Positions 1,698-33,480 of a stretch of DNA of 33,480 bases are shown one piece after another (position 1 is the first letter of the stretch; each line of letters begins with the position of its first letter). The stretch is from Abditibacteriaceae bacterium (GTDB lineage Bacteria; Armatimonadota; Abditibacteriia; Abditibacteriales; Abditibacteriaceae). The stretch covers positions 1 to 33,480 of the forward strand of contig JANMKN010000298.1 of the NCBI GenBank assembly GCA_031372065.1, written 5' to 3'. The notes under the pieces are model-generated. The model saw nothing but the letters and a program-made list of their open reading frames with translations. It was not told where the DNA came from and ran no database searches. The position numbers and the translations under genes are program-made.

Positions 1698-2170
1698 AAA
1701 ATGAAAAATTAAAAAGGCATAAAACAAACACGCGCCGCTCGTTTTGCCTTTTAGCTGTTACCTATTGCCTTTTGCTGTCGGGCTGCGATCAAAAACAGCA
1801 GGCGCAGTTGGAAAAACAAGTGGATGATGTGGCGACAAGCGTGCAAAAAACGACGACTTCCACTGTTGAAAACACGTTGCAGCAAGCGTTTCAGGCTTCG
1901 CAAACCGGCGGCGCGACGTTGCGCGTGAAAACGGCACTTTCGGTCAGCAGCCGCTTGGAAGGCGCGCGCATTGATGTAGAGTTGCAAGGCCAGAAAATCA
2001 TTTTGCGTGGCGATGTGGAAAACGCGGCGCAGAAAACAATTGCGCATTCTATCGCTCAAAATACTCTTGATCCCAAATTCAAAGTCGTCAATCGTTTAGT
2101 TGTGAATTCTTCAAAGAAATCATTATCCGATGGCAAAACTCGCCGCGACACAAATCGAAACGCCCGTTGA
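1694..2170 (+). CDS. BON-domain lipoprotein
   Basis: Lipobox LLSGC; C-terminal VKTAL..IDV..IILRGDV..A..IA..VVNRL BON pattern; ATGA overlap with the M32 gene. Confidence 0.8.
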   Translation: MKNEKLKRHKTNTRRSFCLLAVTYCLLLSGCDQKQQAQLEKQVDDVATSVQKTTTSTVENTLQQAFQASQTGGATLRVKTALSVSSRLEGARIDVELQGQKIILRGDVENAAQKTIAHSIAQNTLDPKFKVVNRLVVNSSKKSLSDGKTRRDTNRNAR

Positions 2171-4373
2171 AGCAGCGAGTGAAAATGCGAGCCAGCCCAA
2201 CGCCGATACGCATGGCGGCGTAACGCGGCGCGTGGTCATCTTCTGCCTCATCACGGCGGCTTTTTTCGGCTTTATCAACCCGATTATTGATGCCAAACTC
2301 GCCAACACGTTTTTAGGCGCGCAGCATTTGCCGCCGGGCGCTGTCGGCGTTTTGCTGGTTGTTTTATTAATCGTCAATCCATTTACGCGCTATGCTTCGG
2401 CGCGTCTTTCTTTTACTTATGTGATGAGCGGCGTGGCCCTGTTGTGCGCTGCTTTGGCGGCTTATCGCTGGCAAGAAAAACTGGGCGGCGCGCCTGTTGA
2501 TGGTGTGGTGTTGTGGACGCCCGCCGTTATCGCGGCGCTGATTGTGATTTGTCTCCTCATGGGGCGCCGTCCCTTGTCGCGCAACGAAACATTGGTCATT
2601 TATATTTCGTGTTTAATCTCGTGTTTGGTGCCCGGACATGGCGCGGAAAACTTTTTTATTCCGTGTTTAATGGGGCCGTTTTATTTTGCGACGCCGGAAA
2701 ACGCGTGGCTGACGAAATTTCTCGAACCCTTCACACCGCAATGGCTCACGCCCGCTTTGTGGGCCGATAAAGGCAACGCTTACGGGCCAATCGGCAAGCA
2801 ATTAGTAACCGATTGGTATTCGGGCAACGGCGGCCACATTCCGTGGCAGTTTTGGGTAGTGCCGCTTCTCGTTTGGTGTTCGTTGATCGTAGCGATTTAC
2901 ATCATGCTCGGCTGCATGGGCGTGATTTTGCGGGCGCAATGGGCCGAACACGAAGCCCTGGCGTTTCCCTTGTTGCGTCTGCCGATGGAACTGACCGAAG
3001 ACATGGATCGCGGCGATAAATATGGCGTTTTTAGCCACTTTTTGCGCAATCCTTTGACGTGGATCGGCTTTTTCATCGCGGTATGGATTCAACTGCAAAA
3101 CGGACTGAATTTTTACTTCCCCGATGTGCCGAAATTCCCTCTCGTCATGGAAACCGGGCCATATTTAAGCGAGCCGCCGTGGAACCAAATCGGCTGGACG
3201 CCGCTGCAAATTTATCCGATTGCCATCGGTCTGACGTTTTTATTAACCAGTGAAACTTCGTTTTCGTTGTGGTTTTTCTATTGGTTCGTGCGCTTTCAGT
3301 TAATCGCTGCTTATTACAGTGGTTTTTTGCCCAATGCGCTGCCCAATGCCTTGGGCGGCGGCGGCAAAAGTTTCATCGCTTATCAGCACGTCGGTGTGTA
3401 TTTCGCCTATGCAGTCCTCGTGTTTTGGACGGGTAGGGCACATTACGGTCATGTGCTAAAACGCGCTTTCAAACGCGTGCCACAAACCGAACGCGAACGG
3501 GGCGAAATGCTGTCGTATCCCGTTGCGTTTTGGGGCTTTGTTTTGTCGCTGGCGTTTTGCATCGGCTGGTCTTTGATGATCGGCGTCAGTTTGCCCGTCG
3601 CGCTTTTGATGTGGCTGTCGTATTTCGTTTTGGCGATTGGTTTAACGCGCGTTGTGGTGGAAGGCGGCTTGCTTTTTGTGCAGCAAGGCTGGACGGGGTT
3701 GGGCACCTTTGCGCAATTGATGGGTAGCGGGCCGGGGACGTGGCTGCCGCCGAATGTTTTGGTGCCCGGCGCGTTTTTGCAGCACGCCATTATGCACGAT
3801 TTTCGCGGCTTTTTGCTGCCGTCTTATGTGCAAGGTTTCAAGCTGGCGCACGATCAAAAATTAGCCAAGCGCCCGCTTTTGCTTTTAATCATCGCGGTCA
3901 TTGTCATCACCTTGCCGATGGGCGTTTTGATGCGCGTGAAATTAGGCTACGATGCGGGTGCGCTTGGCTTTCATTCGTGGTTTGCCAATGGCGGCGCGCA
4001 GCAACCGGCTTTTACATCCAATACGCTCATGGTGAGTCCAAAAGACATGAGCTGGTCGAATTGGTTTTTCCTGCTCGCGGGTATGATTTTTACCTGGCTT
4101 TTGATGGCCGCGCGCAGCCGTTTCGCGTGGTTCCCACTGCATCCTTTGGGCTATCTGGTTAACCTCGGCTACGCCATGAATACGCTGTGGTTTTCCATTT
4201 TTGTCGGTTGGCTTTTCAAAGTTGTCATCACGCGCTACGGCGGCGCCGACAGTTATCGCAAAACTACACCGCTGTTTTTAGGTTTGGCCCTCGGCGATGT
4301 GAGCATGATGCTCTTCTGGCTCATTATTGATGGATGGCAAGGCCGGACGTATCATTATTTGGTGCCGACTTAG
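2130..4373 (+). CDS. Polytopic membrane protein, DUF6785/DUF6784 type (OPT-like transporter candidate), paralog 1
   Basis: 747 aa, many hydrophobic segments; LRAQWAEHEALAFPL, TRVVVEGG, WFPLHPLGY and GLALGD motifs. Confidence 0.75.
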   Translation: MAKLAATQIETPVEAASENASQPNADTHGGVTRRVVIFCLITAAFFGFINPIIDAKLANTFLGAQHLPPGAVGVLLVVLLIVNPFTRYASARLSFTYVMSGVALLCAALAAYRWQEKLGGAPVDGVVLWTPAVIAALIVICLLMGRRPLSRNETLVIYISCLISCLVPGHGAENFFIPCLMGPFYFATPENAWLTKFLEPFTPQWLTPALWADKGNAYGPIGKQLVTDWYSGNGGHIPWQFWVVPLLVWCSLIVAIYIMLGCMGVILRAQWAEHEALAFPLLRLPMELTEDMDRGDKYGVFSHFLRNPLTWIGFFIAVWIQLQNGLNFYFPDVPKFPLVMETGPYLSEPPWNQIGWTPLQIYPIAIGLTFLLTSETSFSLWFFYWFVRFQLIAAYYSGFLPNALPNALGGGGKSFIAYQHVGVYFAYAVLVFWTGRAHYGHVLKRAFKRVPQTERERGEMLSYPVAFWGFVLSLAFCIGWSLMIGVSLPVALLMWLSYFVLAIGLTRVVVEGGLLFVQQGWTGLGTFAQLMGSGPGTWLPPNVLVPGAFLQHAIMHDFRGFLLPSYVQGFKLAHDQKLAKRPLLLLIIAVIVITLPMGVLMRVKLGYDAGALGFHSWFANGGAQQPAFTSNTLMVSPKDMSWSNWFFLLAGMIFTWLLMAARSRFAWFPLHPLGYLVNLGYAMNTLWFSIFVGWLFKVVITRYGGADSYRKTTPLFLGLALGDVSMMLFWLIIDGWQGRTYHYLVPT

Positions 4374-4479
4374 GCTTTTGGACTTTGGTCTTAGGTTTTT
4401 AGTGCCTTGACTAAATTATGAAATCTCAAATCGAATTACTGGACGACGAAAAACCAAAAACCAAAGTCCTAAAACCCAA
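4370..4479. repeat. Imperfect 30-bp inverted repeat of degenerate heptamers enclosing the start codon at 4418
   Basis: 4370-4399 matches the reverse complement of 4450-4479 at 25/30 positions. Confidence 0.65.
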
Positions 4480-6469
4480 AAATATCACGCCCCGCGCCAT
4501 TCTTCTTAGCCTGCTTCTCGCGGCGTTTTTCGGTTACGCCAACCCGCATATTGATTTTTTGTTTAGCAACACGTATTTGGGTGCCACGCATTTGCCGCCG
4601 GGCGCGCTGGGCGCTTTGATGCTCTTGCTGGCCGTCAATGGCGTTTTGCGTTTTATCGGGCCGCGTTTTCGCTTGGCGCGCAACGAACTTTTGACGATTT
4701 TTATTACCACGCTTTTTTCGTGTTTGGTGCCGGGACGCGGCGGCGAATTATTTTTCATTCCCAACACCGTGGGCGCGTTTTATTATGGCACGCCGGAAAA
4801 CAAGTGGCGCGATTTGCTGTTGCCGCATTTGCCGGGTTGGATTTCGCCCGCGCGCACGCCAAACGGCAATTATAACGGGCCATTAGTCGAAGCGTTTTAT
4901 AACGGCGGGCAAAGCGTGCCGTGGGCGTTGTGGATTGGCCCCACTGTGGCGTGGGCGATTTTGATTTTCAGCATTTACACCATGCTTGGCTGCCTTGCGG
5001 TGATTCTGCGTGCGCAATGGGCCGATTATGAAGCGCTGACGTTTCCGCTTTTGAAATTACCTTTAATGATGACGGAATCGCCCGCAGGGATGAGCGATGA
5101 GGGCGGGATGAAAATGGGAAATTCATCCTTTTGGAAGAATCCAACGATGTGGGTTGGCTTTGGCATTTCGGTGTGGATTCAGGGCTTGAACGGCCTCAAT
5201 TATTACTTTCCCGATGTGCCGCCATTCCCATTGATTTTGGACAGCGGACGTTATTTCAGCGAGCCCCCGTGGAACCAAATGGGGCCGTTTGTTTTTCGCG
5301 TTTTGCCCTTTGCCGTTGGCGTTTCGTATTTGCTGTCGAGCGAAGTGGCGCTCTCGTTCTGGTTCTTTTATTTGCTGCACAAGTTTTCTTATATCGCGGC
5401 GTATCAAGCCGGTTTGCCGCCCGGCGCGTTGCCCGAACCGACATGGACGCGCGGCTTTGCCAAGGCTTTTATTTCGTATCAGCAAATCGGCGCCATGTGG
5501 ATGTATGCCGCGCTGGTTCTCTGGATTGGCCGCGCGCATTTGGCGCACGTTGTGCGGCGCGCTTTATGGCGCGAAAGGGCGCGCGACAACGAAAAAGACG
5601 AAGCACTTTCGTATCCCGTGGCGTTTTGGGGCTTCCTCCTTTCGTCGCTCGTTTTGGTTGGCTGGACAACATTGGCAGGCGTGCGATGGGAATTAGCTTT
5701 ATACATCTGGCTCAGTTATTTTGTGATTGCGCTGTGCCTGACGCGCGTGGTCGTCGAAGGCGGAATGCTTTATGTCAATCACGGCTGGTCGCCGCTTTTG
5801 CCATTGGCGCATTTGGTGGGCGCCGGGCCGGACAAATGGTTCAACGTCGAAAGCGTGGTGCCCGGCGCGATGATTCAAAATTCGCTGCTGATTGACCTCA
5901 AAGGCTTTTTGCTGCCGAGCTTTTTGCAAGGCTTCAAATTGGCGCGTGACCAAAAAATTCCGCTGCGCCCGCTCTTTGTTTTGATATTCGCCTGCATTGC
6001 CGTGGCGTTTGTCATGGGCGTGCATACGATTCTTAATATCGCCTACAGCGAAGGCGCTTTGAAGATGAATTCGTTTTGGGCCAACAGCGGCACGCAGGAA
6101 CCGGCGCGAACCGCGAAAGAAATCGCGGGCGGCGTGCAAGATTCGTTTTTGACCAACTGGCTCTGGACTTTCATCGGCGCTTTTGTCACATGGGGTTTGG
6201 TTATCTCGCGCATGAGATTCGCGTGGTTTCCGCTGCATCCGCTGGGCTATATTATGTGGTCGCCTTATGTAATGTATGCCTTTTGGTTTTCGATTTTTCT
6301 CGGCTGGCTTTTCAAAGTAATCATTACGCGTTTTGGTGGCCCGGAAACGTATAAACGCCTGATTCCAGCCTTTTTGGGCCTCACTTTGGGCGATGTAACG
6401 ATGATTTTGCTGCTCAACGGCCTTGATATGTGGCAAGGCCGCACTGGACATCAATTAATGCCGGGCTAA
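4418..6469 (+). CDS. Polytopic membrane protein, DUF6785/DUF6784 type, paralog 2
   Basis: 683 aa; shares NTxLGAxHLPPGA, CLVPG, LRAQW, FPDVPxFP, SEPPWNQ, SYPVAFWGF, RFAWFPLHPLGY and WQGRT with the upstream gene. Confidence 0.75.
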   Translation: MKSQIELLDDEKPKTKVLKPKNITPRAILLSLLLAAFFGYANPHIDFLFSNTYLGATHLPPGALGALMLLLAVNGVLRFIGPRFRLARNELLTIFITTLFSCLVPGRGGELFFIPNTVGAFYYGTPENKWRDLLLPHLPGWISPARTPNGNYNGPLVEAFYNGGQSVPWALWIGPTVAWAILIFSIYTMLGCLAVILRAQWADYEALTFPLLKLPLMMTESPAGMSDEGGMKMGNSSFWKNPTMWVGFGISVWIQGLNGLNYYFPDVPPFPLILDSGRYFSEPPWNQMGPFVFRVLPFAVGVSYLLSSEVALSFWFFYLLHKFSYIAAYQAGLPPGALPEPTWTRGFAKAFISYQQIGAMWMYAALVLWIGRAHLAHVVRRALWRERARDNEKDEALSYPVAFWGFLLSSLVLVGWTTLAGVRWELALYIWLSYFVIALCLTRVVVEGGMLYVNHGWSPLLPLAHLVGAGPDKWFNVESVVPGAMIQNSLLIDLKGFLLPSFLQGFKLARDQKIPLRPLFVLIFACIAVAFVMGVHTILNIAYSEGALKMNSFWANSGTQEPARTAKEIAGGVQDSFLTNWLWTFIGAFVTWGLVISRMRFAWFPLHPLGYIMWSPYVMYAFWFSIFLGWLFKVIITRFGGPETYKRLIPAFLGLTLGDVTMILLLNGLDMWQGRTGHQLMPG

Positions 6470-21505: not shown

Positions 21506-22260
21506 GTGGCTTTTAAACGCTGCGCTTAGGTTTACAAAGACGGGAATCGGCGCGGGCAATAAGTTGAATGGACGATGGTTCAGGGTCGTGATAAGTCAGC
21601 ACTCCGACACATCGGCGGCGACGGCATAGAAGGCAAAACTGAGCAAAGTCAAAAACGCGCCTGCCACAACGCAAGAACGCGTTGAGAAAGCAGCCACAGC
21701 GACAAGCTAACGCCAAAAGATACAAAAGTTGTAAGCAACATTTCACCTTTTGTGGCCGGAAGCAGCCTCACATAGGCAAAAGAGAAAAACGGTATTATAT
21801 ACAAGGCCAAGAAGGTTCGCGCACGTTATCGAAGGCAGCACGCACTTGACGCCGCCCGCCCGAACGTGTCCTTTTTGGTGAAGATTCCGAGACAGAAGAG
21901 TTGGCAGCAGAACCTTTTCCAAATTTTTGTGGGGGGCGATAATTTGCCATGTGCAGTGAAAGTGCGACACAGTAGAATCGACTCAACCGATAATCCCCTA
22001 CTGGCCCACCATCAAACGGAGAACAACGCGAATTAACTATATATTAAACCGGATTTTCAATGATTGTGAAATGGCAGTTAGCGCCATTTAGGGAGGGTAT
22101 ATTATTTTATAGGTGTAATGTGACGAGTTTCTCAGGAGTTAATGGATAAGCCAAAATTAAGAGAAATCCAGCTATAAACCGGTATATAAATTGCCCTACA
22201 GTTCTGCCTGAGGTGGGAAGGTAGCTTTTGCTTGCCAATCGTTAGTTATCGCGTTACCCT

Positions 22261-22294
22261 TTTCAAGTAGTTTGCAATTTCAAGTAGTTTGCAA
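22261..22294. promoter_or_regulatory. Perfect 17-bp direct repeat upstream of the EPS operon
   Basis: TTTCAAGTAGTTTGCAA twice, in an AT-rich intergenic region about 100 bp before the start codon; regulatory role is inferred. Confidence 0.5.
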
Positions 22295-22391
22295 ATGGTC
22301 AAGTGCCGTTTGTATTGTCGTTCATTTTTTGGCGGTCACCTTTTCCACTGACCGTTTTTGCTGTTGATTTCGAGTTAGATGAGGTTTGCGA

Positions 22392-25300
22392 ATGGCAACC
22401 GAGAATCCTGAAATGCGACCCGGCGAAGGGCCGGTTGTGCCACCTAATCCCCCTGAAGGCGCTACCCCTCTGCCGGGCCGCACACGCGAACGTGTCGGCG
22501 CCCGCACGGTGTTTGTTGAAAGCGGTGCGCCTGTGCCGGGCACGTCACGTCCCCCGATGACGCCCACACGGCGCCGCCTCTTGATTTTCACTTGGTGTGC
22601 GTCGTTTTTCATGTTGCTGTATTTGGTGTTCATGTGCCTGTCGTTTTTCGCGCCGGGCTACGACCTCAAAGACCGCATCGCGTCCATCTTCTTGCTCATT
22701 GGCACGCTTTATATCATGGTGCATAGCCTTGGCTATGCGAACTCTATGGTAAAGGCTTCGTGGGGCTACAATGAAGTGCGCCGTCGCGCGTTTACGCCTC
22801 ATGTAGCGCCTCCAGTGGCCTGTTTGCTGGCGACTTTCAATGAGCCACCTGAAGTTGTCGAAGAAACCATCGCCGCTTTGGTGAACATGGAATACGACAA
22901 CAAGGAAATCGTTATTTTGGACGATTCCACCCGCGAGGAGAACCGCGTGGCGATGCGCGAATTGGCGGCGCGTTATGGCGTGCAAGTCCGTCAGCGTACC
23001 AATCGCAAAGGTTACAAAGCGGGCGCGATCAACGAATATCTGCAAGAATCCGGCACCAAATATGTGGCGATTTTCGACGCCGACGCGGTGCCCGCCCACA
23101 ATTTCTTGCGCGATTTAATTCCAATTCTCGAAGAAAACCCCAAACTTTCGTTTGTGCAAACGCCGCAGCATTATGCCAACGTGGATATTTCCAATGTGGC
23201 GCTGGCAGCGGCGCGTCAGCAAAACGTTTTTTACGAATACATTTGCGAAGGCAAAAGCTATTCGAAAGCCGCATTTTGCTGTGGCACCAACTTCATCGCG
23301 CGCCGCGAAGCCTTACTTGATGTGGGCGGCATGGACGACACCACGGTAACCGAAGACTTTGCCACCTCCATTAATTTGCATACCAAAGGTTGGGACAGCG
23401 CTTATTACAATCAGGTTTATGCATACAGTCTCGGCCCGGAGACCTTAGCAGCATACTTCACGCAGCAGCAGCGCTGGGCGTTTGGCAGTGTCAAAACCGG
23501 CTGGAATTTGTTGAAAGCCTTTGTGGGCGGCCCGCAACGGATGCGCATGGGGCAGTGGTGGGAATATAGTTTATCCACCAATTATTATTGGGTTGGTCTC
23601 ATCAACTTGATTTTTATTTTGCTGCCGATGCTTTACATTTTCTTCGGTGTCAAGCCGTTGCGGCAGGATGTGTTTACCTATTTGATGCTGTTCATTCCGT
23701 ATCTCATCTTTTCGATGAATATGTTCTATACGGGCATGGAACAGCGCGGCTATAAATTGACTGATATGCTGCTGGGTCAACAGGTCAACTTCCTGTGCTT
23801 TCCGGTGCATTTGGTGGGCGCGTTTTCGGGTTTGTTCAATTTGAAGCGACCTTTTGGTGTAACGCCCAAAGGCGAAAAAGGACGCATGGGTTGGCTGGCG
23901 TTGTGGCCGCAGTTATTAGTGCTGATTTTATCGGCGATTGCGTTTTTAGTTGGTTTTTACAAGGCGTTTATCACCGGCACGGCGCGCAACGACTCGGCGA
24001 TGGCGATTAACTCGCTGTGGGCTTTGTATCATGTGTTTTTGTTATCGGGCATCTTTCGCTTGAATAAGCCGGTGCGCACGCGCGATGAGCGTTATTTCGA
24101 TGTGCCCGCTTCACAAGCGGCAGGCACTGGTGTGCGCGGCGTGACGCCACCACCGCGCGTGGAACACCGTCCTACAACAACAGGACACATGGCTTTGATC
24201 TTGGCTATCATCTCGATGTTGGGATTGCTCTGCGGTGTATTTACCATTGGACATTGGCTTACGCAGGACACGGTGCGCTCCAATGTATATATATTAGACC
24301 GCACCGTAGGCCGCGATTATCAGGAACATCGCGTTTTGACGTGGACATTGAACTTCCTGAAAGTGCGGCACAACGGCAAGATTTATCCCCAAGATAAAGG
24401 CGCCGATTTATCGAGTTACAACTTTGCCACCGATTATTATGGTTTCGAGCCGCAACCGGAAACGCAGCCTGATAATGGCTTTGTCAAAGACACCAAAAAC
24501 GCTGCGACGCCGGGCACGGATGCGCAAGAAGAAGGCAAAGGCAACGTGCAAGATTTGCTGTCTATCGGCAAAGATAAGCCATTGCCACAAAATCTATCCA
24601 CGCCGGGCGTGCTTTATTTAGTGGATACCATCGGCGAATTCGTTGAATGGGATTACAAAAAGAATCGTTATGTGCGTTATCGCAACCCATCACGCGGCAT
24701 CATAACCGAAGACGTGGCACCGATTCAAGATTTTTACAATCGCAATGGTTTGCTCATCGGTGAGTGGAACACGGTGTCCAATCCGACGCAATTCACCAAC
24801 GATGACGAAGAATTGTTGGTGCAGCGCGGCCTGATGGAAACGCGAAAGGGTCTGAAATATTTGCAAGAAACTGAGTTGCCCAAACGCGAAAAAGATTTGG
24901 CCTTAGCGCGCAAATACAACAATAAAACCGGCATTGCTGAGTTGGAAAAGCAGATAAACGGCCCCGATGGCACGAAAGAACGCATCCAGCGCCATAAGGA
25001 ACAATTGGCGCAATTGGTTCCGATGATGCAGGGCTATGAAAAGAACCGCCCTTCGTCCAATGCGCGTAAAGAAGTCCAAAAACTGCTTCATGTGACTTAT
25101 AAAGGTTGGTATGGCCGCTTTGTGGATCACATTGAACAAGAACGTGAATACGATTACCAGATGTGGAAAAGCATTCGCGATGAGGAACAAAAGCGCTTGA
25201 GCAAAGGCAACGATTATGAGCCGCATGGTCCGTTGTTTGTGTTTTATCGCGACGGCGCCAATCAGGTTTATAATCCTGATACCAAAAAAGTGGAAGATAA

Positions 25301-25844
25301 TCCGTTCTCGGAGCCGATTGTCATCACCGAAGAGGAATTGGCACCGGGTGGCATCAACGAAGTGGCGGCGATTCACAAAGCTGGTTCGGGCGAGGCGGCG
25401 GGCGACACATTGCTCAAAGACGTGGCCGATACGGTTCCGTATCACTACTGGTTTGACGTGGTGCAAGCCGCACCCGGCACTCGCGTTTTGGGGTGGTATA
25501 AGCTGCGTGTGAAGAAATCGGCGGCGACTCGTCTTGAAACCGCTGGATTCCCAGCGACGGCCCTTCAACCGGACAAAGACAACGACGATGTCGTGGTGAT
25601 CACACTGCCTGCTTTGGTGGCTTATCGCGAAGGAAATCAACTGCGTTCGTTGTATTTTGCGGGCGATGCTTCCGATTATTCGCTGGTGCCGCGTTTTGCT
25701 GAAATTGCGCCGTCCACAGGCGGTATCGCTTATTTCTTGGGCCACCGTGCCGGGCCGTTCTCGATGAAGTATTTCTGGAACTATTATCAACCAGTGTTGA
25801 ATAATGTCTTCCAGCAGGAGTCGGCCATTCGTTTCACGGGATAA
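22392..25844 (+). CDS. Cellulose synthase-like GT2 polysaccharide synthase fused to a large C-terminal extracytoplasmic domain
   Basis: LDD, KAGAIN, FDAD, QTPQ, FCCGT, TED, QQQRW, FGVTPKG and TM helices; then an extra TM and ~520 aa soluble domain; RBS GAGG before ATG 22392. Confidence 0.88.
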   Translation: MATENPEMRPGEGPVVPPNPPEGATPLPGRTRERVGARTVFVESGAPVPGTSRPPMTPTRRRLLIFTWCASFFMLLYLVFMCLSFFAPGYDLKDRIASIFLLIGTLYIMVHSLGYANSMVKASWGYNEVRRRAFTPHVAPPVACLLATFNEPPEVVEETIAALVNMEYDNKEIVILDDSTREENRVAMRELAARYGVQVRQRTNRKGYKAGAINEYLQESGTKYVAIFDADAVPAHNFLRDLIPILEENPKLSFVQTPQHYANVDISNVALAAARQQNVFYEYICEGKSYSKAAFCCGTNFIARREALLDVGGMDDTTVTEDFATSINLHTKGWDSAYYNQVYAYSLGPETLAAYFTQQQRWAFGSVKTGWNLLKAFVGGPQRMRMGQWWEYSLSTNYYWVGLINLIFILLPMLYIFFGVKPLRQDVFTYLMLFIPYLIFSMNMFYTGMEQRGYKLTDMLLGQQVNFLCFPVHLVGAFSGLFNLKRPFGVTPKGEKGRMGWLALWPQLLVLILSAIAFLVGFYKAFITGTARNDSAMAINSLWALYHVFLLSGIFRLNKPVRTRDERYFDVPASQAAGTGVRGVTPPPRVEHRPTTTGHMALILAIISMLGLLCGVFTIGHWLTQDTVRSNVYILDRTVGRDYQEHRVLTWTLNFLKVRHNGKIYPQDKGADLSSYNFATDYYGFEPQPETQPDNGFVKDTKNAATPGTDAQEEGKGNVQDLLSIGKDKPLPQNLSTPGVLYLVDTIGEFVEWDYKKNRYVRYRNPSRGIITEDVAPIQDFYNRNGLLIGEWNTVSNPTQFTNDDEELLVQRGLMETRKGLKYLQETELPKREKDLALARKYNNKTGIAELEKQINGPDGTKERIQRHKEQLAQLVPMMQGYEKNRPSSNARKEVQKLLHVTYKGWYGRFVDHIEQEREYDYQMWKSIRDEEQKRLSKGNDYEPHGPLFVFYRDGANQVYNPDTKKVEDNPFSEPIVITEEELAPGGINEVAAIHKAGSGEAAGDTLLKDVADTVPYHYWFDVVQAAPGTRVLGWYKLRVKKSAATRLETAGFPATALQPDKDNDDVVVITLPALVAYREGNQLRSLYFAGDASDYSLVPRFAEIAPSTGGIAYFLGHRAGPFSMKYFWNYYQPVLNNVFQQESAIRFTG

Positions 25845-25923
25845 CAGACGTGAAACACGATTTTAAATTTGAATTGCAGTCGCCTTTTAGAAACTGCATT
25901 TTGGAACAGACTCAATTTTTGAG

Positions 25924-28900
25924 GTGATTGCCATTCTTTCGCATGACGCTTCCACCAAACGCCGTCCGGTAAATTCCGCGCAGGCCATAGAAGCTAACAA
26001 CCAGAACAGTCGACGCGGGCGAAAAAACGTGTTGATGATCGCATCTTCATCGTTGCTACTACCACTGGCGGCGGTGGTGATTACGGGGGCCCAGGCTGCG
26101 CCGGAAAGACCTGCCTCAGCCCGTGTTCGCCTCAAAGCGTCGTCTATCTCCAAAGCGCGCCTTCCAATCGCAGCGCTGGCTGCATTGGCCCGTGCGCGTC
26201 GCTTGATGACACCTGAAATGACACAAGCCGACGAGGGCAACATTCCCGCGATTGAAATCAGCTTGCAACACGCTATTGAACTGGCGCCGGAATGGGTGGA
26301 AGCGCGACGCGTTTTCGCTCGCTGGAAAACGGCGCGGCATCAATGGGACGCAGCAGCGAGCGGTTGGCGGACCGTGTTGGAACTGGCGCCGCGTGACCGT
26401 GAAGCCCAAAGCGAAATCCAAAACGCCACACGCCACGCCGCCGATATGCCTGTTCCGACTTTTGTGTTGGCCGCGCAGCCCTTGGTGCGCTTTGGACACG
26501 ATCTTAGCGGCGGGTTCAATGACGAATTATGGACGGTGGCGCAGTGGAATTATCATGCGCTCATCGAAACGCGCGTTTCCGCAAAAGTAGAAAAATTAGG
26601 CCTTCAGCCTTTGCCGCCATTGCCACCTCTGGGGCTAAAAGCAGTGGGTAAGGTAGTAGACACTGCTCAGGCGCTGGACAATTCGTCCAAAAAAGCACTG
26701 GAAGCGACGACTCCTGCCGAAACTCCGGTAGTTCCGGTCGTCCCCGGTGTTACGACCATCATTGTGCCCGAAGAAGATGGCATTCCTGTGACGCCGCCGA
26801 ATGCAACAGCCGATGGCGTAGCCATTGAATTGCCTGCCGCGCCGCAAAATGTGCCGATGGAAGCGCGTGTGGCCTTAGCGCGAGGTCGCCAACTGGCCGG
26901 ACTGATGGAAGCGTTGCCCGAAGCCGAAAATTGGGCCTTAACCGAATTGCAACGTGCTATAGAACTGGCGCCTCAGTGGGTGGAAGCGCAGCGCGAAATG
27001 GCACTGTGGCAAGAAGAACATGGCGATTGGAGCGCTGCCACGCAAAGCTGGGAAAAAGTCGCCGCCTTAGTGCCCAATGACGCACGGGTGCGGATGGCTT
27101 TGCAAAATGCGTTGGGCATGGTCGAAGCTCAAAACTTATGGGCCAATCGCTCGTTGGTGACGCTGGGCCACGATTCTTCCAACCCCGTCGGGCAGGGAGA
27201 CCGGCTCAGTGTAGTGGCTCTGGCTGCACCATTGCCCGCGCCCGACACCGATTTGAAAACTGCTTTTTCGCTGTTGCCACGTGTGAGTTTGGACGAAGCT
27301 GTCAAAGTGGAAGTGCAAGCGGCTGCCGTTGCTATCGGAAGTGCTGGTGACGAAAAAGTATTGCTGGCCCAAGCTCCTGTAGAACCACAAGCTCCCATAG
27401 CACCCACCGCGCCGACGCCACAGGTGCCAACATCGGAGGCACCAGAGCCTCCGCCTTCTCCTGCCGCTGATACCTTAATTCCTGTAGCCCCGGCTCCGGC
27501 TCTGCCAGAGGCAGCGGCACCAACGATTGATATCGGCACACCTGTCGTGGCAGGCACTGGCGCAGACAATCAACCACCTGTGGATTTGACGCCGGTTCCC
27601 ACTGTTCCCGCTTCGCCTCCGACCATAAACGGTTCGGCAGTCAACGTAAAAACCGTGTTGCCGGGCGCTGCTTCGTTGCCGAAACCAGTGACTAAGCCGA
27701 TGGTTAAGCCAAAGGCCAAGAAATCAGCCAAAAAGCCTGTCAAAACGGCAAAAAAGCCAGCAGTAAAATCGGTAAGCACCTCCAAAAAACGGGCGGCAGC
27801 CGCGTGGCCGTTTGTTAATCAGGCGGGCAAGGCGATGGCGGCTAAGAATTTCCCTGTCGCGCTGGCTAATTATCAAAAAGCCTATGCGCTTGACCCGAAA
27901 AATCCCTATTCGCTCTTTGGCATTCCCAATGCGTTGATGATTCTCAAGCGCTATCCCGAAGCCATTGTGGGATTCAAGCGCTTTTTGGCGTCTTATCCTA
28001 ATCATTCCAGAGCTTTGCGCGGTTTGGCCGATTCGTATACGTTTAGCGGCCAATTCGAAGAATCTGCCGCTTTAAATGGGCAGATTGTGGCGGGCAATCC
28101 CAAGGATTCGGGAGCGGCGCTACAAGCGGCTCAAGTGCTGGCGTGGTCGAAAAAATACCCGGACTCAGGCCGTTTTTATCGTATGGTGTTGGCGGTGCAG
28201 CCGAACAACGGCGATGTGTGGACGGAATATGCCGAAACGCTGTCTTATGCCAAAGACGAGCGCGCTCGCGAGGCCTTTGTCCGCGCTTTAGAAATCAAAC
28301 CGCAATCGCACCGCGCCATGTTGGGCTTGGCGAATTTGCTGTCATGGAATGGCAATTACGCGGAGGCTGTGCCGTATTACGGTGAAGTCTTGAAAGCCGA
28401 CCCGAACAATCTCAAAGCGCGCATTGCTTTGGCCGATGCGCTGACGTTTTCCAGCCGCGCGCCAATGGCGATTAACGAATACGAAACGGCTTTGAAATTG
28501 GCGCCCGATTCGCCCGAAGCGCGCCTCGGTTTGGGCCGCGCTTTGACACTTGCCAAGCGCAACGACGAAGCCATCGCGTTGCTTTCGCCTCTGGTCAAAG
28601 AACAGCCGACCAACACCGAAGCCTTAGAAATGCTGGCGGTAGCGCAAATTGCCCAGCAACCCGGTGCTTCAGTAGCGACTTTCGAAAGTCTGCTGAAATT
28701 ACAAGATCAACCGGCAACACGGGCCGCGACGCTGGCTAATATCGGCGATTTACGCGTGAAGTTGAACCAACCCGACGAAGCGCGGGCCGCCTATGACGAA
28801 GCCGTAAAATTGGCGCCCTTGGACAACAAAATCGCGCTGTCTTACACGCGCGCTTTGATGCGCAGCGAACTTTACGCTGAAGCCGAGCCGTTGCTTGCCG

Positions 28901-29889
28901 GTGTTTTGCAGCGCGACCCTGCCAATCAAGCGGGTTTACTGTTGCAGGCTACAATGGCGGCGCGCATGGGGCAAAACGAACGCGCGGCGGCGCTCACCGA
29001 ACAGTTGCAGGCAATGCCTGTGGATGTCAGCGACGATGCGTTGAATTTGTTCTATGCCTTGCGTGGTTCGGGCAATTCCGCTTCGGCCAATCGTTTGTTG
29101 GCACAGTTGGCCGAAGTAGGCAGTGTCACACCAGAAAATCTGATCAAAGTCGCCAATGCCGTGCGCGATACCGGTCAGGAAGAAGCCTCTTACGCGCTTT
29201 ATCAACGTGTGTTGCAAGCCGATCCCGAAAACGTGGAAGCGCACCTCGAACTGGCCGAGGCCTATATGCGCCGCAAGGAATTCGATACTGCGCAAAGGGA
29301 AGTTGACGCCGTTTTAACGCATCAGCCGGGTAATGTGCAAGCCAAAGTGATGGGCGCGACCTTAGCTTTGCGTCGTGCGCATAACGATTCCACCTACGAA
29401 AATGCGACGATTGTTGCCAAAGAAGCCTTGGCAAAAGACCCGAAGAATATTCCCGCGCGGATGTTAGTGGGAGAAGTTTCATCTACGCGTTCAGACTTCG
29501 CACAGGCTGTGGAAAATTATCGGGTTGTGCTGGAAATTCAGCCGACCAACTTGCAAGCGAGGCTCGGCTTGGCGCGCAACCTGTATTATCTTAAGCAGGT
29601 AGATGATAGCATCAAAGAGTATCAATTGCTGATTCAACAAGCGCCGGATGATGCCATCGTTAAGTTGGAACTGGCGCAGCTTTTTCTGGATCGCAACCGC
29701 TTGGATGAAGCTCAACGCTTGTTTGTGACCGTTCTGAAAGCAGCGAATTATCCGTTGCCCGAAGGCGTGGCCCAACTCGCACGTCTTGTGCCGGGAAGCG
29801 GCGACATCGTTTCGGCAGGGACAGAGCGCGCCTTGCGCGAATTCGCCGTGCAGCAAAAGAATCGTCAAACAAACAAAACCGGTGGCTAA
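25924..29889 (+). CDS. Giant exported TPR protein with Pro-rich and Lys-rich linkers
   Basis: 1321 aa; many A...Y..AL...P.N..A...LA repeats; N-terminal hydrophobic stretch ending in AQA; start uncertain. Confidence 0.85.
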   Translation: MIAILSHDASTKRRPVNSAQAIEANNQNSRRGRKNVLMIASSSLLLPLAAVVITGAQAAPERPASARVRLKASSISKARLPIAALAALARARRLMTPEMTQADEGNIPAIEISLQHAIELAPEWVEARRVFARWKTARHQWDAAASGWRTVLELAPRDREAQSEIQNATRHAADMPVPTFVLAAQPLVRFGHDLSGGFNDELWTVAQWNYHALIETRVSAKVEKLGLQPLPPLPPLGLKAVGKVVDTAQALDNSSKKALEATTPAETPVVPVVPGVTTIIVPEEDGIPVTPPNATADGVAIELPAAPQNVPMEARVALARGRQLAGLMEALPEAENWALTELQRAIELAPQWVEAQREMALWQEEHGDWSAATQSWEKVAALVPNDARVRMALQNALGMVEAQNLWANRSLVTLGHDSSNPVGQGDRLSVVALAAPLPAPDTDLKTAFSLLPRVSLDEAVKVEVQAAAVAIGSAGDEKVLLAQAPVEPQAPIAPTAPTPQVPTSEAPEPPPSPAADTLIPVAPAPALPEAAAPTIDIGTPVVAGTGADNQPPVDLTPVPTVPASPPTINGSAVNVKTVLPGAASLPKPVTKPMVKPKAKKSAKKPVKTAKKPAVKSVSTSKKRAAAAWPFVNQAGKAMAAKNFPVALANYQKAYALDPKNPYSLFGIPNALMILKRYPEAIVGFKRFLASYPNHSRALRGLADSYTFSGQFEESAALNGQIVAGNPKDSGAALQAAQVLAWSKKYPDSGRFYRMVLAVQPNNGDVWTEYAETLSYAKDERAREAFVRALEIKPQSHRAMLGLANLLSWNGNYAEAVPYYGEVLKADPNNLKARIALADALTFSSRAPMAINEYETALKLAPDSPEARLGLGRALTLAKRNDEAIALLSPLVKEQPTNTEALEMLAVAQIAQQPGASVATFESLLKLQDQPATRAATLANIGDLRVKLNQPDEARAAYDEAVKLAPLDNKIALSYTRALMRSELYAEAEPLLAGVLQRDPANQAGLLLQATMAARMGQNERAAALTEQLQAMPVDVSDDALNLFYALRGSGNSASANRLLAQLAEVGSVTPENLIKVANAVRDTGQEEASYALYQRVLQADPENVEAHLELAEAYMRRKEFDTAQREVDAVLTHQPGNVQAKVMGATLALRRAHNDSTYENATIVAKEALAKDPKNIPARMLVGEVSSTRSDFAQAVENYRVVLEIQPTNLQARLGLARNLYYLKQVDDSIKEYQLLIQQAPDDAIVKLELAQLFLDRNRLDEAQRLFVTVLKAANYPLPEGVAQLARLVPGSGDIVSAGTERALREFAVQQKNRQTNKTGG

Positions 29890-29919
29890 AGCGATAGCTA
29901 AAGCGGCATCGCAAGATTT

Positions 29920-32900
29920 ATGGAAATAGTGACTTTAACGGGCATAAAACGCATTGAACCGCAGAAGTTTTTAAGGAGCACCACGAACCACATGCAAAGC
30001 ACGAACACCACGGCGCCTACAAAGGCGCACAATCAAGACGGTAAAGTGCTGCATTGTATCTGGAGCCGCAGCCTGCGTGGAAGCCTGAAACAAGGCCAAC
30101 GCCAGACGGCGCGCTGTATTTTGCTGGTCGTCACTGGCGCAACACTGGCATGGCCGATGGCCGATGCTTTTGCCAGCCCGTCTCGCAAAGCTGCGGCGAA
30201 AAGTGCCAAGCGCAGCAAGAAAAAGCAGACAATGCGCAAAACTCTGGCGAAAAGACCAATCGCCAAAGTTAGCGCGCAGACGCGCTATATGCAAGTGGGC
30301 GGCGTTCTGGCGCGTCCCGGCGAGAATCCCGCTGTTTTGCAAGTGCAAACTTCAGCGATTCCCACTGCTACCAATGTGACGGTGGCGTCCACTGTTATCG
30401 CTCAGGCACCTACAGAAGTTCCCACCGCGCCTGTTGCCCTCGCGCCCATAGCGCCAGAGCCTGTATCGCCCACACCGGTCGCACCGGCACCAGTCGCACC
30501 AGATGCTGGCGTATTGCCAGTTGTGCCTGTCGCGCCGATAGTTCCAGAAACGCCAGTTGTCATCGTCGTTCCGGTGACACCGGGCACGCCTGTGGTGCCT
30601 GCAACAGGAGAAAATTCGGCGGTGCCTGAAGCCAATTTGTCGGCGCCCGAAGCGGTAGGCAATCAAGCCGAAGCGTTGCGCGGTTTGGGCGAAATCCGGC
30701 GGCGCCAGCAGCGTTACGATGAAGCGGTGGACTTTTTCCGGCGCGCCTCGCTGCTTGATCCGGGCGATATTAAAGCGCGCGTGGGCCTTTCTCAATCGCT
30801 GCGTGGCCTGAAAAATTATCAGGAAGCCTTGGTTGAATCGGAAAAGGCTTTGGCGCTTGACCCCAATAATTTAGCGGCGCGCGTCATTCACGCACAGTTG
30901 CTGGGCGATAACAATCGTCCCGATGACGCCGCCAAGGAATTGGATGCGTTGGTTGCCTCGCTGCCGGAGAAGCCTTTGCCCGAAACGTATGCGGCTTTGG
31001 CGCAAGCGTTTGTCGGCTTGCACAACTACGATGCGGCGCTGCAAATTTTAGGGCGCGGGCATCAGGATTATCCAACCGATGCCTTTATCTCGCGCAATTT
31101 GGCCGAGACACTGACGTATTCCAAGCGTTGGGATGAAGCCATCACCGCGTGGGACGCTCTGATTGCCGTTGATGCGCAAGATGCCGATTCGTATTTAGGC
31201 AAGGCGCGGGTTTACAATTATTCATCGCGCGAAGATCAAGCCGAGCCACTTTACCGCCGCGTGCTGGAAATTGAGCCGGATAATTATCAGGCGCGCGTTG
31301 AATTGGCGGACATTGTCGGGCGTCGTGGCAACTGGCCCGAAGCGATTACGCTTTATCAGGCGGCGTTGGAGAAAAATCAAGGCGATTTGCCAACCCGCGT
31401 CGAACTGTCGCGCGTGCTGCGTTACAGCGGGCGCTATGCGGAAGCCGAGCAGGAACTCAATAAGGTTTTGGAAACCGACGCGAAATTCGCCCCGGCGCTG
31501 ACCGAACGCGGCATTTTGCGCGGCCAGAACAAGAAATACGATCTGGCGATTGCCGATTTGCAAAAAGCTCTTGAACTGACACCCAATGATGTTTATGCGC
31601 AGTTTGGACTGGCCGAAGTGCTGGGCTACAACAAAAAATACGACGAAAGCATCGCGCTTTATCGCAAGGCGCTGGCCCAAGAGCCGGACAACCAGAAAGG
31701 TCGCGTGCAACTTGGTTTGGTGTTGTCGTATGCCAGTCGTGGCGAAGAGGCTCTCAAAGAATTTGAGACAGTTTTAGCCGCCAATCCAGCCAACGTCAGC
31801 GCGCAAATCGGCAAGGCTGACACGCTGGCGCGCTTGCAACGCTATCCCGAAAGCATCGCGCTTTACGAAAGCATTTTAAAAACTGACCCGCAGAATCGCC
31901 GCGCCAACGCGGGGCTTGCGGAAGCCTACATTTACGCGAAGCAATATACGAAGGCGCTGGCGATTTACGACAGGTTGGTGGTGGCTGACCCGAATGATAT
32001 CAATTTGGCAGTTGACCGGGGCCGCGCTTATGGCTATGCCGGAATGCATCACGAAGCTGTGAAGGCGCTGCGCCCGATTGTCGTTGCACACCCGGAAAAC
32101 CTTGACGCGCAGTTGTATTTGGCTGCTGCCTTGGCCGATTCCGGTGAGCGCGCGTTGCGCGAAGAAGCAATTGGGCACTACAAGGCTGTAATCGCGGCTG
32201 ATCCGAACAACTGGGACGCGCATTTAGGTTTGGGGCGTGTGTTGAGTTATCAAGGGCGCACTCGCGAAGCCGAGGTTGAACTGCGCCGTGTGATTGCGGC
32301 CCGTCCGAATGATCCCAATGCGTATTATTCTTTGGGTGAAGCCGTGCGCTATGCGAAGCCGTTTGACGCCAAAGACTATTATGAAAAGGCGCTGAAACTG
32401 GGCGCTACAGGCTACAACGCCAATCGTGCCTCGCTTGCGCTACGCGAACTGCGTCGTGAGACGCATCCTTCGCTGGAATTGTCGTATCGCCGTTACACCG
32501 ACACCAATGGCGTTCGCTTGACCGAATATGGTGGTGGCCCCACCTTCCGCACCCGCGCGGGCACCATTGGCGCGTTTTATCACACCGGCACTTACAAAGA
32601 TGATGGTGTTTCGCAGTCGCGCCGCACTATGAGCCTCTTGCTGGCGCGCAAATTCGGTGGCATCAGCGCGCGTTTGATGTTGCATCGCGTGGCTTATGGC
32701 ACTGCGCCGGATCGCTCGCTCTTTGATTTGATGTTGGAAAAAGCGCGCGGTGACCGCAAGCGTTTCTGGGCCAATATTGGACGCGATGAAGTCATCGAAT
32801 CGCTCGGTGCCACCAACGCGGGCATCACGCGGCAGGTTTATCGCGCGGGTGTCGAATGGCCGTTAGCTGCTCATGTTGATCTTGATTTGGAAGGGCGCTA

Positions 32901-33309
32901 CTTCCGTTATTCTGATGGCAACAACCGCACCACGTTGCGGCCTTCGATTTATTATCGCTTGAAGCGCACTTCGCCCACGCTGCGCATCGGTTTGGGTTAT
33001 GTGCGCGATAATACGAAGTTTCTTTCGCCGATTCCCACGCCGTATTATGCGCCGCAGGATTACAGCACCTTCGTGGCGCTGGCCGATTATGTGAAAACCA
33101 TCGGACGCACGCAATACGGCGTGTTCTTGGCGCATCCTCTGAGCAACAGCACAGGAAGCGGCGGCGTGAATCGTCCGGCAGACACCTTGTTTGGTTTCCT
33201 CAGTCACGACCTCAATGAGGACTTGCAATTGTTCATCAATGGCGGCATCGTGCGTGGCCCGAACTTCGATTCCGACGATATTACCGGTGGCCTGCGTTAT
33301 TGGTTCTAA
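29920..33309 (+). CDS. TPR plus C-terminal outer-membrane beta-barrel protein (BcsC/PgaA/PelB-like exporter)
   Basis: Long TPR run, then ~280 aa of alternating beta-strand pattern ending GGLRYWF (beta-signal); start may be ATG 29992 (AAGGAG upstream). Confidence 0.82.
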   Translation: MEIVTLTGIKRIEPQKFLRSTTNHMQSTNTTAPTKAHNQDGKVLHCIWSRSLRGSLKQGQRQTARCILLVVTGATLAWPMADAFASPSRKAAAKSAKRSKKKQTMRKTLAKRPIAKVSAQTRYMQVGGVLARPGENPAVLQVQTSAIPTATNVTVASTVIAQAPTEVPTAPVALAPIAPEPVSPTPVAPAPVAPDAGVLPVVPVAPIVPETPVVIVVPVTPGTPVVPATGENSAVPEANLSAPEAVGNQAEALRGLGEIRRRQQRYDEAVDFFRRASLLDPGDIKARVGLSQSLRGLKNYQEALVESEKALALDPNNLAARVIHAQLLGDNNRPDDAAKELDALVASLPEKPLPETYAALAQAFVGLHNYDAALQILGRGHQDYPTDAFISRNLAETLTYSKRWDEAITAWDALIAVDAQDADSYLGKARVYNYSSREDQAEPLYRRVLEIEPDNYQARVELADIVGRRGNWPEAITLYQAALEKNQGDLPTRVELSRVLRYSGRYAEAEQELNKVLETDAKFAPALTERGILRGQNKKYDLAIADLQKALELTPNDVYAQFGLAEVLGYNKKYDESIALYRKALAQEPDNQKGRVQLGLVLSYASRGEEALKEFETVLAANPANVSAQIGKADTLARLQRYPESIALYESILKTDPQNRRANAGLAEAYIYAKQYTKALAIYDRLVVADPNDINLAVDRGRAYGYAGMHHEAVKALRPIVVAHPENLDAQLYLAAALADSGERALREEAIGHYKAVIAADPNNWDAHLGLGRVLSYQGRTREAEVELRRVIAARPNDPNAYYSLGEAVRYAKPFDAKDYYEKALKLGATGYNANRASLALRELRRETHPSLELSYRRYTDTNGVRLTEYGGGPTFRTRAGTIGAFYHTGTYKDDGVSQSRRTMSLLLARKFGGISARLMLHRVAYGTAPDRSLFDLMLEKARGDRKRFWANIGRDEVIESLGATNAGITRQVYRAGVEWPLAAHVDLDLEGRYFRYSDGNNRTTLRPSIYYRLKRTSPTLRIGLGYVRDNTKFLSPIPTPYYAPQDYSTFVALADYVKTIGRTQYGVFLAHPLSNSTGSGGVNRPADTLFGFLSHDLNEDLQLFINGGIVRGPNFDSDDITGGLRYWF

Positions 33310-33320
33310 ACAAACCGAAC

Positions 33321-33362
33321 GCAAAAACGGCGTGCGAGAATTCTCTCGCACGCCGTTTTTGC
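33321..33362 (+). terminator. Intrinsic (probably bidirectional) terminator of the EPS operon
   Basis: 19-bp stem GCAAAAACGGCGTGCGAGA / TCTCGCACGCCGTTTTTGC followed by TTTT. Confidence 0.88.
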
Positions 33363-33437
33363 TTTTGACGTGAAACACTTGGTTTCGCAGCGCCCGTTAC
33401 AGGCTATAATACTTAAAGAGCGACTGCGTCGCTCGCT

Positions 33438-33480
33438 CCCCTCACCCGACCTCTCCCCCGAACGCTACGCTGGGGAGAGG
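33438..33480 (+). repeat. REP-like CCCCTCACCC..CCTCTCCCC..GGGGAGAGG palindromic element, at the window edge
   Basis: Stem CCTCTCCCC (33450-33458) / GGGGAGAGG (33472-33480) with a CCCCTCACCC leader. Confidence 0.6.

Follow-up and report, generated by a model that had tools for sequence, protein, structure and literature searches.

We analysed a 33,480-nt window of DNA from an Abditibacteriaceae bacterium, which is the whole of contig C236 (JANMKN010000298.1) of a 6.1-Mb assembly that is 94% complete, and focused on a locus of three large genes predicted to make and secrete an exopolysaccharide. The closest full-length relatives carry the labels Abditibacteriaceae or Abditibacterium. The three open reading frames (ORFs) are co-oriented on the plus strand with gaps of 79 and 30 bp, as the first-pass annotation had described; the gaps were measured from the first possible start codons, and because a close relative begins near Met25 of ORF3, the true ORF3 start may lie further in. 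The features of the locus, and of one gene on another contig that is considered with it, are listed below (aa, amino acids; TM, transmembrane helix).

22001-22391, plus strand: AT-rich leader, presumed promoter region, from GC content
22392 (ATG)-25844, plus strand: gene 1 (P0002), 1150 aa, processive GT2 synthase fused to a putatively periplasmic domain
22563-24062, plus strand: GT2 core, aa 58-557, from the alignment of relatives, the AlphaFold model and the BcsA fold match
24081-24260, plus strand: linker (aa 564-598) and extra hydrophobic helix (aa 595-623)
24264-25841, plus strand: C-terminal domain (P0001), 526 aa, modelled class I glutamine-amidotransferase-like fold
24801-25088, plus strand: helical hairpin insert of about 95 aa in the C-terminal domain, from homologue alignment and model
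25924-29889, plus strand: gene 2 (ORF2), 1321 aa, signal-peptide-like N-terminus and TPR scaffold
29920-33309, plus strand: gene 3 (ORF3), 1129 aa, signal-peptide-like N-terminus, TPRs and outer-membrane barrel
32467-33306, plus strand: PgaA-type beta-barrel (P0003), last 280 aa of ORF3, ending in Phe
33321-33362, no strand assigned: strong hairpin with A/T runs on both sides
G000:C319:16731-18332 (L182:8732-10333): PilZ-TM-GH26 fusion P0270, 533 aa, from PilZ and GH26 matches in one ORF

Gene 1 encodes a processive GT2 synthase, in line with the first-pass annotation. GT2 Pfam matches cover aa 140-548, and the full motif set is present (DD177-178, KAG209-211, DxD229-231, QTPQ256-259, FCCGTN295-300, TED320-322, PE349-350 and QQQRW358-362), together with a gating loop, FGVTPK488-493. 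Alignment showed that the processive GT2 motifs are complete and near invariant in 58 relatives, and that FCCGT replaces the FFCGS acceptor motif in 58/58 sequences. The AlphaFold model (pLDDT 77) comprises two N-terminal helices, a GT-A domain, interface helices, four more helices and the gating loop, and a search with this model returned BcsA as the best fold match (E 1.6e-25). The NCBIfam scores lay under the cut-offs for both CelA/BcsA (236 bits, cut-off 699) and PgaC (95 bits, cut-off 422). Glu350 is invariant and aligns with the PE motif of BcsA that holds Glu371, which keeps the resting state via a PilZ arginine according to the consulted part of PMC10374906. At the place of the PilZ domain in BcsA, the model of gene 1 has a low-confidence or disordered linker; Pfam gave no PilZ match in gene 1, and no RxxxR motif is conserved in the linker among the aligned relatives. 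The extra helix that follows would take the chain to the periplasm and so put the C-terminal domain there. The fused synthase was found in 22 of 27 Abditibacteriaceae genomes, and 51 of 52 matches in a search with the C-terminal domain carried GT2 Pfam families. One family genome carries two synthase copies, the second at 60% identity (L017/L205); another GT2 type, marked by FLCGTN and IED/TED motifs, is found in seven (L202-L204) and lies once beside a PA14/polysaccharide deacetylase gene.

Genes 2 and 3 encode the candidate exporter. Both products are TPR-rich by Pfam and have signal-like N-termini. The barrel of gene 3 matched the PgaA structure 4Y25 at profile level (E 2.2e-4), PgaA_barrel was found in 10 of 49 members of the barrel family, and HHalign gave 97.5% against the barrels of sister operons in other phyla. 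When compared with a 2054-aa fused protein of a relative, gene 2 (aa 579-1273) aligned with aa 294-1006 at 40% and gene 3 (aa 241-1129) with aa 1166-2054 at 52%. By alignment, a TPR/PgaA-type barrel gene of about 2,000 aa, single in most relatives, is here divided into genes 2 and 3. Of 21 family synthase loci, 15 have the barrel gene downstream; contig ends truncate four, and in the remaining two the exporter is encoded at another place in the genome. The separate TPR-only and TPR-barrel genes of the first-pass annotation are indeed two ORFs here, but 11 of these 15 loci have one gene of 1990-2208 aa instead; three are split as here and one is split into 461 + 1871 aa. An assembly error was rejected as the source of the split, since both ORFs have signal-like N-termini of their own and a barrel frame of 1120-1185 aa is present in all four genus g1 genomes. 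The genome has another barrel from this family (26% identity; G000:C10:3842-4774), which lies among unrelated genes without a neighbouring synthase; similar paralogues occur in six other family genomes.

The domain fused to the synthase had no match in Pfam, NCBIfam, PDB sequences or the ESM Atlas. A Foldseek search with its model (pLDDT 89) gave nothing at E <= 0.001, and the fold was resolved only by a wide structural search, with matches to 3RHT (Z 14.8; root-mean-square deviation 3.8 over 216 residues), 2GK3 (Z 14.3), the GH42 middle domain (Z 13.4) and Agd3 (Z 12.8). The modelled fold is class I glutamine-amidotransferase-like (GATase1-like). The helical hairpin is absent from the stand-alone homologues shown and specific to the fused form. 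BcsB was not among the best 50 structural matches, in itself no proof against it; an identification as BcsB was rejected, as HHalign against E. coli BcsB gave 1.2% and there was no BcsB profile or family match. An active glutaminase was likewise rejected: the nucleophile Cys is not conserved, reaching at most 16 of 149 sequences in any column, so there is no glutaminase triad. Near-invariant polar residues in the same 149 sequences are D12, T14, E21, H22, D121, E167, N169, R285, D468 and D471 (P0001 numbering). The first-pass annotation had proposed accessory functions fused to the synthase; the fused part is not recognisable as a co-polymerase, c-di-GMP (cyclic di-GMP) receptor or hydrolase but is a GATase1-like-fold domain.

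Searching 1.84 billion representatives with the C-terminal domain gave 100 matches, mostly stand-alone proteins of 360-430 aa that share the motif series and carry a hydrophobic anchor at the N-terminus. One family member found 632 relatives, labelled Bacillota, Deltaproteobacteria, Patescibacteria, Cyanobacteria, Gemmatimonadetes and Methanofastidiosa. By sequence, the domain belongs to a widespread unnamed family of membrane-anchored proteins of 370-400 aa with at least 632 members. None of 137 genomes from elsewhere in the phylum contained it. Across 79 metagenome loci with stand-alone relatives, a different GT2 lay nearby in 56 and a HEAT-repeat protein in 38, often with GGDEF or response-regulator genes, and Paenibacillus cellulosilyticus has the same set. 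The neighbouring GT2 lies far from gene 1 in the GT2 tree, and the C-terminal domain was therefore likely captured from another polysaccharide system. These loci (L081:7723-15566 and L103-L181) make up a second operon, widespread and unnamed, that is centred on the stand-alone form, with the different GT2, the HEAT-repeat protein and a 370-aa or 1050-aa member, the latter being a fusion to an unknown domain of about 700 aa. GGDEF or response-regulator genes often accompany it, GH16 or TPR proteins sometimes do, and some HEAT-GT2-domain fusions occur (P0153). No description of this HEAT/GT2 operon was found in the literature searched.

The first-pass annotation had stated that the operon has no separate bcsB, bcsZ, deacetylase or PilZ/GGDEF gene, and Pfam and NCBIfam scans of the three ORFs agreed, showing no BcsB, glycoside hydrolase (GH), deacetylase, PilZ or GGDEF. 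The 94% complete genome had 0 matches to BcsB (PF03170), and GH8 was present in only one of 27 family genomes and not in the host. The genome has 22 GGDEF matches and a single PilZ match, P0270. This protein combines PilZ (aa 13-122), a hydrophobic helix (139-157), a predicted coiled stretch and GH26 (about 245-530), and it is the genome's best match to the profile of operon-linked GH26s (E 1.8e-78; next 7e-35). Its gene is divergent from a MutY-like gene, and a HATPase_c-domain gene often follows. The c-di-GMP motifs R15xxxR19 and D49xS51xxG54 are present, and of 94 orthologues, 92 keep RxxxR, 93 keep DxSxxG and all 94 keep the acid/base motif; the catalytic glutamates E350 and E465 are invariant in 94 sequences.

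The distribution of P0270 follows that of the operon. The locus is co-conserved, and the barrel and P0270 orthologues (>=46% identity) each occur in 21 of the 22 family genomes with the synthase. P0270 orthologues occur in 0 of the 5 family genomes without the synthase (G157, G019, G159, G160 and G033; 77-95% complete), which have no barrel either, and none of the 137 genomes from elsewhere in the phylum has one. Fisher's p for the co-occurrence of synthase and P0270 was 7e-5, which is overstated because four of the five lacking genomes belong to one genus. These results suggest that P0270 is likely the missing c-di-GMP sensor and hydrolase, working with the synthase. The first-pass idea of a minimal three-gene system probably does not hold: because the PilZ-TM-GH26 gene on another contig shares the operon's distribution, the system probably has more than three genes.

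For the polymer, we compared the hydrolase and the acceptor site of the synthase with characterised proteins. The best PDB match of the P0270 GH26 was CelH, endoglucanase H of Clostridium (E 9e-47), followed by other GH26s at 1.6e-9 or weaker. We take the CelH/Lic26A GH26 module to be a mixed-linkage-specific lichenase. Mannanase-type GH26s form a separate, well supported clade in the GH26 tree, and beta-1,3-xylanase matches were at E 6e-4. The acceptor-site comparison used the residues that separate BcsA, CrdS and BgsA in the S8 Table of PMC6821405, in RsBcsA numbering and mapped by eye. The synthase is CrdS/BgsA-like at 276, 298, 309, 317, 376 and 501, CrdS-like at 320 and BcsA/BgsA-like at 318 (Cys); other positions were ambiguous or non-diagnostic, apart from those weighed below. 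Pair scores were slightly higher for BgsA-type synthases (164-184 bits) than for BcsA (142-152 bits). The acceptor-site residues lean towards a 1,3-containing glucan. Since the GH26 is nearest CelH/Lic26A and the acceptor residues point toward CrdS/BgsA, a mixed-linkage beta-glucan is the best guess.

Sister loci were found in other phyla. The nearest GT2s outside the family, at 38-47% identity to gene 1, lie in 59 other loci from Dehalococcoidales, Omnitrophota, Elusimicrobiota, Desulfobacterota, Planctomycetota and Chlorobi. By counts made by hand from a table in which many contigs are short, a co-oriented GH26 (32) or GH8 (12) was present in 44 of the 59 and a TPR protein in 43; the Chlorobi relatives carry GH8, the BcsZ family. 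The TPR-barrel/GT2/GH26(GH8) operon of these phyla has the same synthase clade, a barrel homologous to that of gene 3 and the same GH26 subgroup as the Abditibacteriaceae. It differs in that its GH26 is adjacent and has an N-terminal anchor only, whereas in the Abditibacteriaceae the GH26 is unlinked and PilZ-fused, with no GH26 or GH8 near the synthase in 21 loci. Most sister synthases stop after the last core helix, whereas the Abditibacteriaceae synthase carries a gained domain, and the TPR tract in this family is about three times longer. The Dehalococcoidales synthase relatives (L022-L024) have neither exporter nor hydrolase neighbours and adjoin KaiC-like ATPase, histidine kinase and trehalose-synthase-like genes.

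From sequences and models together, we consider it probable (about 0.58) that the PilZ-less GT2 synthase and the split TPR/barrel exporter make and secrete a beta-glucan, probably of mixed linkage (1,3;1,4), with the PilZ-TM-GH26 protein acting in trans. The synthase would polymerise UDP-glucose and thread the chain through its membrane channel, and the fused periplasmic domain may take BcsB's place where the channel opens, serving as a guide or scaffold without catalytic activity. P0270 would dock through its helix; its cytoplasmic PilZ would bind c-di-GMP and release the gating loop in trans, like Alg44 for Alg8, and its periplasmic GH26 would trim or clear the chain, like BcsZ. The TPR halves would guide the chain to the barrel, and the three genes would be co-transcribed. 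A bolder form of this proposal is tentative and falls somewhat short of even odds: a mixed-linkage glucan machine of new layout, in which one PilZ-GH26 protein would be c-di-GMP switch, co-polymerase anchor and periplasmic hydrolase at once, coupling synthesis to cutting, and in which the synthase's domain, captured from the second undescribed GT2/HEAT polysaccharide system, would define a new multi-phylum family of polymer-handling or modifying proteins.

Several observations weigh against a mixed-linkage glucan system with P0270 as its partner. The co-occurrence may reflect perhaps two losses, and shared ancestry accounts for much of it, as both synthase and P0270 are family-specific; the correlation between synthase and P0270 identities (r 0.97) comes without a housekeeping control. 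One genome with the synthase (G152, 80% complete) has only a 40% P0270 paralogue, and the P0270 gene is fragmented in G096 and G155. The GH26 tree puts P0270 in a broad lichenase-like group, but with weak support at deep nodes and no operon-linked protein among its nearest neighbours; its subgroup membership is supported and strict orthology is not. The P0270 PilZ profile gave no clear match when run against the sister loci (best E 0.047), and RiGT2 has PilZ motifs yet no c-di-GMP dependence, according to the consulted part of PMC10374906. On the polymer, the synthase has BcsA-type residues at 302 and 351, and at 249, 285, 299, 336, 412 and 562 its residues agree with neither type. A 58-sequence FastTree tree sets its clade apart from both BcsA and BgsA; this tree held no CrdS sequence, and its BgsA was an S. 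meliloti pSymB ORF that we assigned from an HlyD+GT2 pair in an unannotated record.

Three other explanations were weighed. In one, the locus is a self-sufficient cellulose (beta-1,4) system in which the fused domain replaces BcsB, c-di-GMP is not needed and P0270 is an unrelated family-specific enzyme. BcsA is the best NCBIfam, PDB sequence and fold match of the synthase, but the CelA score misses its cut-off and no CrdS or BgsA structure was among the PDB matches to compete with it. The BcsA-type residues at 302 and 351 also favour cellulose, whereas the uniform FCCGT and the slightly higher BgsA-type pair scores speak against it; GH8 in the Chlorobi relatives is set against its presence in a single family genome, and the unlinked position of P0270 against a distribution that tracks the operon. 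We regard a cellulose system as improbable. We think it similarly improbable that the same machine and partner make a beta-1,3-glucan (curdlan-like) or another beta-glycan, e.g. glucomannan or beta-1,3-xylan. The CrdS-type residues at 309, 320 and 387 would fit such a polymer, and GH26 also includes mannanases and beta-1,3-xylanases; however, the Cys at 318 is of the BcsA/BgsA and not the CrdS type, the mannanase-type GH26s stand in their own clade and the xylanase matches are weak. That the fused domain is a chain-modifying enzyme at the channel exit, and not a passive guide, is unlikely, although a little less so. Its near-invariant polar residues are consistent with an enzyme, and the same fold is found in Agd3 and NDST1. 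In 56 of 79 loci the stand-alone members have a different GT2 as a neighbour, which ties the family to polysaccharide synthesis. On the other side, there is no conserved Cys and hence no glutaminase triad, the structural matches GH42, OST48 and IFT52 share the fold, and fold likeness alone shows no function. In GH42, OST48 and IFT52 the GATase1-like fold is an accessory domain.

The mixed-linkage system proposed here overlaps with several known ones. With Bcs it shares a processive GT2 of the same fold, the DD/DxD/TED/QxxRW, KAG and FxVTxK motifs, the resting-state Glu, and a TPR scaffold with a barrel. The periplasmic domain of gene 1 also recalls BcsAB fusions, which are synthases with a fused periplasmic domain (PMC8892547, consulted part). 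However, the synthase has no C-terminal PilZ, the genome has no BcsB or GH8, the fused domain is not BcsB-like, FCCGT stands for FFCGS, two N-terminal helices are present where Bcs has four, and the barrel is nearer PgaA than BcsC. The S. meliloti mixed-linkage glucan system BgsBA and the curdlan synthase CrdS share with gene 1 the lack of PilZ, two N-terminal helices, QTPQ, FCC and several diagnostic residues (PMC6821405, consulted part with S8 Table), but identity is about 28-30%, the clade is separate, the C-terminus is different and export here is by TPR/barrel. No HlyD-type BgsB was found in the window; the genome was not searched for HlyD. Alg8/Alg44 likewise pairs a PilZ-less GT2 with a PilZ-TM-periplasmic-domain protein, Alg44 being proposed to activate Alg8 in trans in the consulted part of PMC8892547; the periplasmic part of Alg44 is MexA/HlyD-like, whereas that of P0270 is a GH26 with its catalytic residues kept, encoded by an unlinked gene. 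PgaABCD shares the PgaA-type TPR and barrel and a PilZ-less synthase, but the synthase here is glucan-synthase-like by its low PgaC score, and Pfam and NCBIfam found no PgaC, PgaB deacetylase or PgaD in the operon.

The boundaries of the operon agreed with the first-pass annotation, which had placed the genes between an AT-rich region and a strong terminator. The leader is 40.2% GC against 54.4% in the genes, and only 0.5% of 15,504 genome windows of the same size are as low. Sigma-70 matches in the leader were not above chance, an Rfam search upstream of gene 1 gave no c-di-GMP riboswitch or other match, and conservation of the upstream DNA in four close relatives was only patchy. The hairpin after gene 3 has a 19-bp stem (-38.6 kcal/mol, z -8.9; equalled in 0 of 200 shuffles) and is likely a bidirectional intrinsic terminator. 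Past it, a further G/C-rich self-complementary stretch, possibly a dispersed repeat, runs from 33420 to 33480, the contig edge. The 20 other ORFs scanned in the window are unrelated to the three genes; at 2130-6469 lie tandem DUF6785/DUF6784 membrane proteins (747 and 683 aa) and then a 418-aa ORF without a family.

No description of the fused synthase, the PilZ-GH26 fusion or the whole system was found in the literature searched, and subscription papers and supplements may bear on this point; the main text of PMC7112194 mentions no GH26, Chlorobi or Armatimonad. The first-pass proposal of an undescribed beta-glucan or cellulose-like secretion machine with accessory functions in the synthase thus stands in part, as an apparently undescribed beta-glucan export locus with a fused accessory domain, but that domain is not recognisable as a co-polymerase, c-di-GMP receptor or hydrolase. 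The fused synthase, exporter and PilZ-GH26 protein likely represent a variant of synthase-dependent beta-glucan secretion conserved in one family of mostly uncultured bacteria. Abditibacterium utsteinense, a cultured strain, encodes a PilZ-GH26 protein (P0329), which makes the idea testable. Characterised mixed-linkage glucan synthases are few among bacteria, and GT2 sequence does not yet allow linkage to be predicted; the synthase clade described here is a large group. Operon-only surveys can call a system minimal though parts of it are encoded elsewhere, and the main interest lies in the unlinked PilZ-GH26 fusion and the captured domain more than in the minimality of the locus. The fused C-terminal domain gives a first functional context for an unnamed family of at least 632 members, and a c-di-GMP receptor fused across the membrane to a hydrolase would, if true, couple activation with chain trimming in a new manner.

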